Made by a program: the position numbers and the translations under genes. From Candidatus Saccharimonadia bacterium (GTDB taxonomy: Bacteria > Patescibacteriota > Saccharimonadia > UBA4664): DNA of 53,713 bases. How positions within the stretch are numbered: position 1 is the stretch's first letter; each line of letters opens with the position of its first letter. The stretch is taken from positions 1-53,713 of the forward strand of contig JBBRTI010000004.1 in assembly GCA_038244585.1 (NCBI GenBank), read 5' to 3'. Positions 2,136 to 28,377 of this stretch are shown here, one piece after another. The notes beneath the pieces were generated by a model. The model searched no databases and had not been told where the DNA came from. It saw nothing but the letters and a program-made list of their open reading frames with translations.

Positions 2136-2358
2136 CAAAACAAAAACCCCAAAGGTGGGTGGTCACCGGTGAGGCTTTTGTTACACCCTTCAACCGCGCC
2201 CAAGGGCGTTTTGGCGAGTCTCTCGCAATGGAGGAGAAGCGGGTTTGAAGGGACTAATCCGCCTGCGCGATAGCTGAAGGAGGGTGCATCCAGATATCAT
2301 CGCAGACAGATTAGTGATATTGTTGAGGGGAACCACCACGCTCGTTTGCGAGGTATGT
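2136..2358 (-). ncRNA. Putative structured small RNA or cis-regulatory leader (~220 nt)
   Basis: Own sigma70 promoter; 15-bp stem 2253-2267/2301-2315 perfect only on minus strand (two G-U pairs); second multibranch stem 2186-2252; terminal hairpin + U tract; no credible ORF. Confidence 0.6.
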
Positions 2359-2363
2359 TCAGT

Positions 2364-2392
2364 ATGCTAACACAGTTTGTTAATAATGTCAA
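2364..2392 (-). promoter_or_regulatory. Sigma70 promoter for the putative sRNA
   Basis: TTGACA-17 bp-TAGCAT with TGn extension on minus strand. Confidence 0.7.
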
Positions 2393-2401
2393 CACCTATT
2401 T

Positions 2402-3262
2402 ATGCAAATTAATCAAATAAACTTCCAAACGGACGCCTTTCCTGAACAATTAGCCGAAATTCCCAGTCCGCCGAAGTGCCTTTTTACGTTGGGAGAATTG
2501 CCAAGCGGACCATATCTGGCCATTGTCGGGACGCGCAAGCCCACCAGTTACGGCCGCCATATGGCCTATCAGCTCGCCAGTGAGCTGGCGGCTGCCGGGT
2601 TCGTTATTGTCAGCGGCCTAGCTTCCGGCATTGACGGCGTGGCTCACCAGGCGGCCCTGGATGTCGGCGGCAAAACTTTGGCTGTGCTTGGCAGCGGTCT
2701 GGACCGTATCTACCCGGCCGACCACCGTAAGTTGGCAACCGACATCCTGGGGGCAGGCGGAGCACTGGTATCAGAATTTCCGATCGGCACTACGCCGTTC
2801 CCCGGCAACTTCGTCGCCCGCAACCGTATAATCTCGGGCCTGTCGCTAGGCACTGTCTTCATTGAAGGCGACGTCAAAAGCGGCGCCATCCATACGGTAA
2901 ACTTCGCCATCAAGCAGAACAGGGTCGTTATGGCCGTACCTGGTAACGCCACGTCGCCCATGTCGGCTGGTCCCAACAACATCATCCGCGAAGGCGGCGT
3001 CCCGGTTACCGGATCCATTGATGTTATCAACCAGTTCCAATCGCAACTGGCAACGGACAAACCACAGCCCGTCACGGCGGCCGACCCACGGGAAGCTTTG
3101 CTTACCAAGCTCCTAAAGGAGGGCAAGACCACAACTCATGACCTCATAGCGGCCAGCGGTCTGCCCGCCGGCGAGCTGGCAGATGTCATGAGCCTCATGG
3201 AAATTTCGGGAAAACTGCGCAACTTGGGATCGGGGCAATGGGCGGCGCGCGTCCGGTCGTAA
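2402..3262 (+). CDS. dprA: DNA-processing protein DprA
   Basis: LAIVGTRKPTSYG, IVSGLASGIDG, FVARNRIISGLS, C-terminal winged helix. Confidence 0.96.
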   Translation: MQINQINFQTDAFPEQLAEIPSPPKCLFTLGELPSGPYLAIVGTRKPTSYGRHMAYQLASELAAAGFVIVSGLASGIDGVAHQAALDVGGKTLAVLGSGLDRIYPADHRKLATDILGAGGALVSEFPIGTTPFPGNFVARNRIISGLSLGTVFIEGDVKSGAIHTVNFAIKQNRVVMAVPGNATSPMSAGPNNIIREGGVPVTGSIDVINQFQSQLATDKPQPVTAADPREALLTKLLKEGKTTTHDLIAASGLPAGELADVMSLMEISGKLRNLGSGQWAARVRS

Positions 3263-3291
3263 GTCTGACAAAAAAATGTTATAATAGGGTG

Positions 3292-4260
3292 ATGAATTTC
3301 TGGCAGTCATTACCAAAACCTTTCTTTGTCCTCGCCCCGATGGACGAGGTGACCGACATTGCCTTTAGGCAGATAGTAGTCCGTGCGGCAGCACCTGACG
3401 TACTCTTCACCGAGTTCGTAGCCACCGACGGGCTGCAGAGTGCCGGGAGGGAGCGTACGTTGGAACGTCTGCGCATCGAGACTAGTCTGGACAGGCCTCT
3501 AGTTGCCCAGATTTGGGGGGCCAACCCCGACAATTTCTACACAAGCGCCAAGGAAATCGCCGCTATGGGTTTTAGCGGCATCGACATAAATTTCGGCTGC
3601 CCGGAGCGGGGGATTGTGGCCCGAGGTTGCTGTGGCGGCATGATCGGCCGCTACGACGCAGCGGCCGCCATTATCGAGGCGACCAAACGCGGTGCCGGGA
3701 ACGTACCGGTTAGTGTAAAGACACGGATAGGCCTGGCCGAGGTGGCAACCGAGGAGTGGGCTACCTTCCTGCTGAAACAGGATCTGGCCGCCCTGACGAT
3801 CCACGGCCGCACTGTCCGCGAGATGAGCCGCGTGCCGGCCCGGTGGGATGAGATTGCCAAGGTCGTAGCCCTGCGCGATAAGCTAGCCCCACAGACGCTC
3901 ATCATCGGCAACGGTGACGTTGCAGATTATGCCGCCGGCCTTGAACGCGTCGCCGAAACCGGTGTCGACGGCATCATGATCGGCCGGGGGATTTTTCACG
4001 ACATCTACGCCTTCTCTCACGAAGCCACCGCGGCGACTCCGGCGCAACGTTTGGAAATTCTCCTCCATCATATTTCGCTATACGAGGACACTGGCAGCAG
4101 CAAACCGTTCCACGTTCTCAAGAAGTTCTTCAAAATCTACGTCAGCGGATGGCGCGATGCCAGCGACCTGCGAACTAGGCTCATGGACGCGACGACCCCG
4201 GACCAAGTCCGCGCGCTTGTAGCCTCAGCCGAAGTCCCCGAAGTCATGCTATCCGCATAA
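3292..4260 (+). CDS. dus: tRNA-dihydrouridine synthase
   Basis: LAPMDEVTD, IDINFGCP, SVKTRIG, TIHGRT, GNGD, GIMIGRG; start placed at ATG 6 nt after TGnTATAAT. Confidence 0.93.
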   Translation: MNFWQSLPKPFFVLAPMDEVTDIAFRQIVVRAAAPDVLFTEFVATDGLQSAGRERTLERLRIETSLDRPLVAQIWGANPDNFYTSAKEIAAMGFSGIDINFGCPERGIVARGCCGGMIGRYDAAAAIIEATKRGAGNVPVSVKTRIGLAEVATEEWATFLLKQDLAALTIHGRTVREMSRVPARWDEIAKVVALRDKLAPQTLIIGNGDVADYAAGLERVAETGVDGIMIGRGIFHDIYAFSHEATAATPAQRLEILLHHISLYEDTGSSKPFHVLKKFFKIYVSGWRDASDLRTRLMDATTPDQVRALVASAEVPEVMLSA

Positions 4261-27151: not shown

Positions 27152-27179
27152 GATATCTCGTCCTAGATCGGAGGAGCGA

Positions 27180-27674
27180 GTGACTACTTTAGTTAGCGCA
27201 CCCCAAGCGCGAACGCACCACAGTCCGATGCAGTTTCGGGGCGGAAAAGCTTCACACAAGCGCCCATCGCGGTCGCCTGTGGTCCGTGATCGAGCGGCCT
27301 ACACCCCTTATGCCAAGAATCCCGGCGAGAGGTTGGTAGCAGACCTACTCAGGATTGAAGGCCTCAAGTACGACTATGAGCCGCAGGAGTTCAGCCTAGA
27401 GCTGACCGGCAAGGGCAAGTCCGCCATCAAACCAGACTTTTACGTCCGCAAGTTCCATGTTTTCTTGGAGGTCACTCAAGGAAATGATCTGAACATGGGT
27501 TTTAAGCGTTCCAAGATCAGGAACGCCCACGCACTTTACCCCGAAGCCACCATCATCCTCGTGGGGCCCGACGAGCTCGCCGAGCTGGACTCCGGGCAGG
27601 TAATGATCATCGACCTGATCGAACAGGGTATTGAGGACCGGGAGGCGCCACACGGATGCACAAACGTCGCATGA
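27180..27674 (+). CDS. PD-(D/E)xK-like nuclease-fold protein 1
   Basis: GE..VA.LL...GLKYDYEP..F...KPDFY....VFLEVT; GTG start with ggagga SD. Confidence 0.75.
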   Translation: MTTLVSAPQARTHHSPMQFRGGKASHKRPSRSPVVRDRAAYTPYAKNPGERLVADLLRIEGLKYDYEPQEFSLELTGKGKSAIKPDFYVRKFHVFLEVTQGNDLNMGFKRSKIRNAHALYPEATIILVGPDELAELDSGQVMIIDLIEQGIEDREAPHGCTNVA

Positions 27675-27814
27675 TCAACATCCGACGCGATTCAGAAAGG
27701 AGGGTCACCTTGAACACCAATCGGACCGCAATCATCGGCTCGACTTAGGGGGTGATCCGTTTCTGGCAGGTATGCCGTGCAGAGCCTACCATTTCCAATG
27801 CCGCACATATTCCA

Positions 27815-27865
27815 CCCTCCGAGACCCGGCATCGTATGAGAATGCCGGGTCCGGAGGGGCTTTTT
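27815..27865 (+). terminator. Intrinsic terminator between the two nuclease-like genes
   Basis: ccctccg-a-gacccggcat ... atgccgggtc-cggaggg-gc-ttttt. Confidence 0.75.
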
Positions 27866-27900
27866 ATACCATCTCTCTGGATACTGAATGGAGCGGGGTA

Positions 27901-28377
27901 ATGACAGCTTCGTACCTGATACCCAGTCCTGGGCCATGTCTTAGACGGCGTACATCGCCTCATAAGTTCGTCGGTCCAGGTGAAGCGGAGTTTGCCTCAT
28001 GGTGCCAGCTCCTTGGCATCGACATCTCGTATGAACCATTTCTATACGAGCTCGTCACAATTCTGGATTACGACGATAATGGAGTCGGGCGCGTCCGTGT
28101 CCGCAAGGGCTTTGCACCGGATTTTCTCATCCATGCCACGGATTACTGGCCCGCAATGCATGTGGAAATTACCGGCGCCCGCAGGCGCGGCAAAAAAATC
28201 TACCGCATGCGACGGACCCGAGAGCAATACCGCATGCATACTGTCCTACTGGTCATCGGAACCTCATCTTGGCGCCGCATCGAACGCGAACCCCAGGAGC
28301 TCAGGCGACTGCTCCTCAGGGCTGGCCGCAGAGCAATTGCCATTTCACCGAACTCTTCAGCTGCTGAATCTGCGTGA
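27901..28377 (+). CDS. PD-(D/E)xK-like nuclease-fold protein 2 (paralogue of protein 1)
   Basis: GE.EFA.....LGIDISYEP.LY...FAPDFL....MHVEIT; start placed after the terminator. Confidence 0.7.
   Translation: MTASYLIPSPGPCLRRRTSPHKFVGPGEAEFASWCQLLGIDISYEPFLYELVTILDYDDNGVGRVRVRKGFAPDFLIHATDYWPAMHVEITGARRRGKKIYRMRRTREQYRMHTVLLVIGTSSWRRIEREPQELRRLLLRAGRRAIAISPNSSAAESA

Follow-up and report, generated by a model that had tools for sequence, protein, structure and literature searches.

RsaE/RoxS and RNAIII are stand-alone, Hfq-independent RNAs with their own promoters and terminators, and C-rich tracts in their loops pair with Shine-Dalgarno (SD) regions. RsaE/RoxS is conserved at about the level of an order. 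The alpha-r14/NfeR1 RNAs of alpha-rhizobia repeat an anti-SD motif in several loops and occur in multiple copies within one lineage.

A 53,713-nt stretch of a Candidatus Saccharimonadia genome (the window) was analysed, and comparison with related genomes identifies the minus strand from 2358 to 2136 as a stand-alone structured non-coding RNA gene of about 220 nt (Table 1). Its resemblance is closest to the C-rich-loop sRNAs, with which it shares an invariant, exposed CCUCC-type loop on a covarying stem; Hfq was found in none of the five genomes searched. The unpaired, conserved anti-SD tract that marks this SD-pairing class is present as ACCCUCC. Like RsaE/RoxS (RF01820) and S. aureus RNAIII, the RNA stands alone, has a predicted promoter and terminator, and carries a C-rich loop. 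Unlike RsaE/RoxS, to which it has no sequence or covariance-model match, it is about twice the size of RsaE and contains a three-way junction, and it differs from both RsaE/RoxS and RNAIII in its single universally conserved C-rich loop, class-wide conservation, and fixed synteny. The alpha-r14/NfeR1 RNAs are also stand-alone and place a CCUCC-type anti-SD motif in a hairpin loop, but the present family has a single invariant loop, a single copy in each genome, a different fold, and no Rfam match. Two further comparisons are with ribosomal and housekeeping RNAs. The 3' tail of 16S rRNA has the same sequence except for one inserted C and is likewise single-stranded (predicted, for the loop), whereas the RNA described here is not ribosomal, has lineage-variable flanks, and always carries the extra C. 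The 6S (RF00013) and SRP (RF00169, RF01854) RNAs are similarly single-copy, widely conserved, structured, ~100–270 nt long, and driven by strong promoters, but neither has a model match at this locus and their architecture is different.

Searches for a known family were negative. The whole window has no matches to Rfam 15 at gathering scores, the region 1900–2600 produced only a chance match to FinP (E = 7.5) that lies outside the RNA, and ten homologous loci returned only sub-threshold matches to miRNA and hammerhead hairpins. The Rfam scan proposed in an earlier note on this DNA therefore points to an RNA that has not been catalogued. Full-text literature searches gave no description of it, and on these searches the family is uncatalogued.

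Table 1. Features of the RNA locus and its neighbours, in window coordinates.
Feature	Position	Strand	Details
Promoter (predicted)	2364..2392	-	-35 TTGACA 2392-2387, 17-nt spacer, TG 2372-2371, -10 TAGCAT 2369-2364
RNA, ~223 nt	2136..2358	-	Predicted 5' end 6-8 nt past the -10 box; predicted 3' end in U tract
P1, small 5' hairpin	2335..2354	-	Core CUCG-CAAA-CGAG, 2352-2341; sequence variable among relatives
C/U-rich tract UUCCCCUC	2325..2332	-	P1-P2 linker; relatives instead have GAACCA... or A/U-rich sequence
P2, long irregular hairpin	2253..2315	-	Basal stem, internal loop, upper stem, apical loop
P2 basal stem, 15 bp	2315-2301 with 2267-2253	-	G-U pairs U2308-G2260 and U2306-G2262
Apical-loop motif CACCCUCCUU	2277..2286	-	Class-wide constant core ACCCUCC, 2285-2279
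C/U-rich tract CCCUCCUUC	2284-2276	-	Listed in the earlier note; in apical loop; conserved
P3, multibranch domain abutting P2	2186..2252	-	Closed by CCCUUCAA (2252-2245) with UUGAAGGG (2193-2186)
P3a	2241-2215	-	Hairpin inside P3
C/U-rich tract UUCUCCUCC	2230..2238	-	P3a stem and loop; alignment columns variable in sequence and length
P3b	2208-2197	-	Hairpin inside P3
P4, intrinsic-terminator hairpin (predicted)	2139..2182	-	Inner stem GGUG/CACC, hexaloop ACCACC 2163-2158, U tract to 2136
dprA	2402..3262	+	Pfam DNA_processg_A, E = 8.3e-70; divergent neighbour
dus	3238-4260	+	Neighbour gene
Rce1-like protease gene	2032-1364	-	104 nt downstream of the RNA, co-directional

The earlier note had read this strand as an independent RNA with its own promoter and terminator, and the predicted elements support that reading. 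The extended -10/-35 promoter it described is present, with 10 of 12 consensus matches in a promoter scan that also flagged the TG extension. The match alone is weak evidence because three promoter-like sites occur between 1800 and 2700, compared with a mean of 1.4 in shuffled sequence. The -35 box and a GTGTGTTAGYAT block are kept in an alignment of 29 homologues, and a TTGACA box is also found 5' of the loop motif in most of 40 distant loci. The predicted transcript scores 179.9 bits with a covariance model (R1) that was built from the 29-homologue alignment. P4 was not listed by a simple terminator scan of the region.

Folding is specific to the minus strand. The predicted free energy of that strand is -92.7 kcal/mol (z = -7.42) and none of 200 shuffles folded as well, compared with z = -1.67 and 13 of 200 shuffles for the plus strand. 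The fold recovers the 15-bp stem that depends on two G-U pairs, the abutting second stem with its two small hairpins, and the U-tailed terminal hairpin, as had been described from the single sequence. A BLASTN search with 271 nt produced matches in 35 of 61 related genomes, and the MAFFT alignment of 29 homologues contains invariant blocks. Covariation was scored on a hand-drawn structure of 64 pairs, with a control in which the pairing partners were slid. In the 29 MAFFT-aligned homologues, 88.1% of cells are paired (34%–46% in the slid control) and 41 of the 64 pairs change on both sides (21–25 in the control). Values from 46 model-aligned RNAs spanning the class are higher, with 56 of 64 pairs changing on both sides (29–38 when slid) and a covariation score of 0.493 against at most 0.099 in controls, but this alignment leans towards the structure because it was fitted to R1. 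The stems, whose covariation the earlier note had proposed to examine, thus covary strongly in both sets of homologues.

Support from covariation extends to every helix. Among the 46 model-aligned RNAs, the P2 basal helix has changes on both sides in 13 of 14 pairs and is 93% paired, and the P2 upper helix has such changes in 9 of 11. The P3 closing helix is paired in 98% of cells, with both sides changing in 4 of 8 pairs, and the corresponding counts are 8 of 8 for P3a, 3 of 3 for P3b, and 4 of 4 for the inner helix of P4. The outer helix of P4 changes on both sides in 7 of 11 pairs in the MAFFT alignment and in 10 of 11 in the model alignment, so the stem of the putative terminator also covaries. 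All five P1 pairs change on both sides, yet only 70%–72% of their cells are paired, and P1 is therefore considered poorly aligned. A pseudoknot between the loop and the 3' strand of P3 (CACCCU with AGGGUG) was considered and rejected; the loop never varies, while the UG of its proposed partner does (GGGCG, GGGCC, GGGAA).

The RNA family is near-universal in this class of small-genome bacteria, judging from model matches and from the regions upstream of dprA. R1 matches 95 of 151 sampled genomes of the class, or 80 of the 125 that are of high quality. The RNA is present once in each matched genome except G027, which has two. The most distant RNAs found with the model are longer and have the loop GUUACCCUCCAC, and for this reason the search was shifted to dprA-upstream regions. 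dprA was located in 132 of the 151 genomes, and 40 upstream regions were taken from genomes with no match or a weak match to R1, one of them only 180 nt long because the contig ends there. CCCUCC occurs on the dprA-divergent strand in 35 of the 40, typically ~125 nt past the TTGACA box; this counts the hexamer only, for which a rough estimate of chance occurrence is ~3 in 40. Local folding places the motif in a hairpin loop in 30 of those 35 regions. When R1 was run with filters off, 28 of 39 dprA-upstream regions had a match with E <= 0.01, and the best match was on the expected strand in all 28. The motif, its loop placement, and the R1 matches at these distant loci therefore identify hairpin-displayed ACCCUCC as the universal core. 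Elements that persist class-wide are the apical loop CACCCUCCUUU, the P2 basal stem, and the P3 closing helix (CCCUU/AAGGG).

A longer variant of the RNA, found in many families of the class (loci L086, L088, L089, L155, and L157–L196), has an additional 5' domain in which a UUACGUACCUUU-ACCCCUA block is conserved. The loop sequence of this variant is (G)UUACCCUCCAC or CUACCCUCCAC, and a separate covariance model is needed to describe it. In G027, one RNA (C1:5796-6037) accompanies a dprA at C1:6081-6917 and the other (C13:1024-1271) a dprA at C13:141-980; the pair could be a duplicated module or could reflect redundant contigs from mixed strains. Outside the class, R1 gave one convincing genome (G240), which has the loop AUCACCCUCCUUU and dprA upstream. 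CCCTCC was present in 4 of 20 dprA-upstream regions from other classes, which is close to the chance estimate over 1.1 kb. The extended CACCCUCCUUUAAG was found in only two of those four (L197 and L208), and R1 had weak matches in two of the 20 (L206 and L208).

Within the best explanation that we can offer, the apical loop of P2 is the functional core of the RNA. The loop motif is invariant in 29 of 29 homologues and CCCUCC is held by 42 of the 46 model-aligned RNAs. Its mean predicted unpaired probability is 0.94, compared with 0.36 for all bases (42/42 motif-bearing RNAs). The own assembly does not include the 16S rRNA 3' end, which reads GGAUCACCUCCUUUCUAG in four relatives. The tail of these relatives, CACCUCCUUU, and the loop, CACCCUCCUUU, are one inserted C apart, and the loop is thus an anti-SD core with one extra C. 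The anti-SD-like tract to which the earlier note had drawn attention proved to be the most conserved part of the molecule. It was one of three C/U-rich tracts singled out in that note; all three exist where they were placed and the one at 2284–2276 is conserved, but those at 2238–2230 and 2332–2325 are lineage-specific. A second C-rich loop that had been overlooked, ACCACC in P4, is conserved within the own order. In the alignment, as read by eye, the majority of own-order RNAs have CCACC, as do the distant RNAs L083 and L085–L089, whereas the intermediate loci L070–L082 and L084 lack it.

The position of the RNA is also conserved. In 40 of the 46 loci, which come from across the class, the adjacent upstream gene is a divergent dprA, and in the own order it usually lies 43 nt from the RNA 5' end. 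This arrangement agrees with the suggestion that homologues be collected upstream of this gene. A sortase gene is also among the neighbours. Downstream ORFs are present in 45 loci; the recurrent ones face the RNA and belong to families found in 21 and 8 loci, which we take to be der/engA and pth from motif recognition in examples of each. Four genomes keep the RNA at full length and high score without a match to the DprA family (G007, 100% complete; G005, 98%; G121, 96%; G088, 99%), and G013 has only a sub-threshold DprA match, located elsewhere. In G007 (locus L054) 138 nt separate the RNA from dus, the arrangement that a clean deletion of dprA would leave. Because it is kept in genomes without a DprA match, the RNA does not exist only for dprA.

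Five kinds of target test were made, consisting of 10-mer counts, fetched sites, sites in the own genome, dprA mRNA, and the base that follows GGAGG. No conserved target emerged from them. The loop complement AAGGAGGGTG has 222 matches in 101 genomes, of which ~75 are the RNA genes themselves, leaving ~147 that are non-self. A control of the same composition, the SD variant AAGGAGGTGG, has 177 matches in the same number of genomes, and the complementary 10-mer is therefore not enriched. By hand tally, the own order has fewer copies of the complementary word than of the control (~62 versus 90). The same tally suggests an excess in family f15 (~31 versus 11), a figure that relatedness confounds and that runs opposite to the own order. 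The complement of the variant loop, GGAGGGTAAC, has 80 matches in 101 genomes, with no clear excess. At putative SDs of the own genome, GGAGG shows no preference for a following G (14 of 87, versus 232 of 1,266 elsewhere, with crude start calls). A loop-complementary hexamer was found in 5 of 35 dprA mRNAs, at scattered positions, and GGAGGGU was not found in the RNase P RNA, tmRNA, 6S-like RNA, or 16S regions of relatives.

Individual sites with full complementarity do occur near genes. The fully complementary AAGGAGGGUG is at SD distance of real genes, with an ORF of 50 codons or more starting after 28 of the 60 sites examined. Genes that recur at those sites code for a ribonucleotide-reductase-like ATP-cone protein (4), ParA (3), and a secreted coiled-coil protein (6). 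In the own genome those recurrent genes are without the extended site, and no reductase-like gene was identified. The own-genome nrdR (G000:C3:29997-30455, minus strand) has AGGAGGGUGG 6 nt before its ATG, and this is the best full loop complement at any start codon in that genome. By a crude count, an SD-like tetramer is upstream of about a quarter of long ORFs (219 of 821), compared with ~100 in background windows. Two complementary sites had been offered as examples in the earlier note, and both exist. A GTG follows GGAGGAG at 27170–27176 and begins a frame of 164 codons. AAGGAGGGT at 27697–27705 is inside or just upstream of an ORF at 27631–28377, with no close in-frame start behind it. 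Overall, the observation made in that note is confirmed, as a structured, strand-specific RNA gene that is divergent from dprA and absent from Rfam. Its interpretation as an SD-targeting RNA is plausible but unproven: two of the three tracts drop out, so that only one matters, and complementary sites are not enriched.

Other identities for the locus were weighed against this evidence. Stop-free stretches of ~50 codons in many homologues (median, 50) and a 49-aa ORF with a GTG start at 2339–2190 could suggest a small protein-coding gene. Frames across the invariant motif are closed in 42 RNAs, with medians of 20–27 codons and minima of 5–7, there is no Pfam match, indels are not multiples of three, and changes in the stems are compensatory, and we consider a coding role highly improbable. 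ARAGORN identified no tRNA or tmRNA in the window. It is just as hard to credit a cis-acting leader (riboswitch or attenuator) for the Rce1-like protease gene, even though in this genome a structured RNA and a terminator are followed by that co-directional gene. The protease gene adjoins the RNA in only 1 of 46 loci and has a promoter-like site of its own (2106–2078, 11 of 12 matches). The ORFs that recur downstream are encoded on the other strand, and the RNA is therefore not a leader. A very divergent SRP or 6S RNA would also be single-copy, near-universal, and, as here, 215–250 nt long, and it would fit with the absence of SRP RNA model matches from the own genome and all 41 relatives searched. 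SRP proteins, however, appear to be missing as well. None of 121 genomes of the phylum has a match to SRP_SPB, the Ffh M domain; SRP54 GTPase has only short matches in the P-loop range (model positions 2–52), in 6 of the 31 genomes searched within the order, three of them just over the curated cut-off; and no ORF with an SRP GTPase motif was found in the own genome. The RNA sequence has no visible GNAR tetraloop or helix-8 motifs, its fold is multi-hairpin rather than a bulged rod, and a better 6S candidate exists at another locus (C36:4824-4980), which together make an SRP or 6S identity very unlikely. A role confined to dprA is less remote, though still improbable. The RNA could set the level of this competence protein through a competing, overlapping promoter or as an antisense to the dprA 5' leader, and the conserved divergent arrangement, the same motif position in 35 of 40 further genomes, the RNA copy beside each dprA in G027, and a dprA start that leaves no room for a separate promoter would all be expected. 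Against it are the full-length RNAs in genomes without a DprA match, including G007 where the RNA adjoins dus instead, and the lack of a loop-complementary site in dprA mRNA beyond hexamers at inconsistent positions. A purely local role would also need neither a conserved fold nor an invariant loop.

We prefer to read it as a trans-acting, Hfq-free RNA whose loop would base-pair with GGAGG(G) ribosome-binding sites. The partners of the P2 ACCCUCC would be GGAGG(G)-type sequences, for example the SD regions of a subset of mRNAs, the CCACC terminator loop possibly assisting in the own order, and pairing would compete with the 16S anti-SD tail and so lower translation of those mRNAs. Since the target tests show no selection for sites, this reading is held tentatively, at somewhat less than an even chance, and a protein-binding RNA is kept beside it as the main rival, possible though unlikely. 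Base-pairing sRNAs are usually less deeply conserved and less elaborate than this RNA, which has five helices and a three-way junction. A housekeeping or protein-binding RNA would account for its class-deep conservation, with traces beyond the class, and for its multi-domain fold no less well than a classical regulatory sRNA would. In the protein-binding alternative, the loop would mimic the 16S 3' tail and titrate or recruit a factor that recognizes it, with the rest of the RNA as a scaffold. Candidate factors presumably include the KH domain of Era, KsgA, YbeY, and IF3 (30S maturation and initiation), or an anti-SD nuclease. Consistent with this are the single-copy, class-wide distribution with traces in other classes, as for housekeeping RNAs, the near-consensus promoter, and a conserved multi-domain fold whose invariant CCCUU/AAGGG junctions would be needless for a seed-pairing sRNA. 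The lack of enrichment of loop-complementary mRNA sites agrees with it as well, and likeness to 16S extends beyond CCUCC in some loci (AUCACCCUCCUUU in L071, L072, and L154, compared with AUCACCUCCUUU in 16S). However, the flanks of ACCCUCC differ by lineage (GCACCCUCCUUU, CUACCCUCCAC, and GUUACCCUCCAC), and the mimicry is imperfect because the extra C is universal. A broader proposal, which we regard as rather doubtful, is a lineage-wide housekeeping RNA in Patescibacteria that copies the 16S anti-SD tail and acts as a general decoy or competitor in translation initiation or 30S maturation. Such a decoy would soak up SD-led mRNAs globally or bind a factor or nuclease that recognizes the 16S 3' end.

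Genomes in this class are 0.6–1.7 Mb and have shed SRP, yet almost every member keeps a 220- to 400-nt RNA in a fixed place, and its retention despite such reduction implies an important function. Should its role be to pair with ribosome-binding sites, the RNA would be the phylum's first candidate for a global riboregulator. As a protein-directed mimic of the 16S tail it would define a new housekeeping ribonucleoprotein, and as a general decoy it would be a new core component of a reduced translation apparatus in SRP-less cells, as opposed to a gene-specific regulator. Cultivated, naturally transformable relatives exist (PMC10633639), and on that account loop mutants could be made and the question tested directly.

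Additional observations concern other RNAs and dprA. RNase P RNA, tmRNA, and 6S-like RNA have matches at other loci of the genome. The 6S-like candidate (G000:C36:4824-4980, minus strand) scores 37.5 bits (E = 1.5e-6), below the gathering score of 46.4; RNase P RNA is next to it at C36:2971-3334, and a tRNA-like match is beside it at C36:4740-4815. Loss of ffh and ffs in related Parcubacteria has been published (PMC4508563), and the absence of SRP components from the genomes searched here extends that finding to this class. The dprA ATG is 9 nt beyond the -35 box of the RNA and has no SD, with no room for a separate promoter, and the only nearby promoter-like site on the plus strand is at 2055–2082. 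dprA could be transcribed as a leaderless mRNA, from a divergent promoter that overlaps that of the RNA, or with a long antisense leader. A dprA -10 box within the spacer of the RNA promoter was also considered and was dropped because the spacer is variable in the 29-homologue alignment. Most of the phylum's other classes have DprA frames of ~360–400 aa, compared with ~285–300 aa here, and from frame length this class seems to have a shortened DprA.
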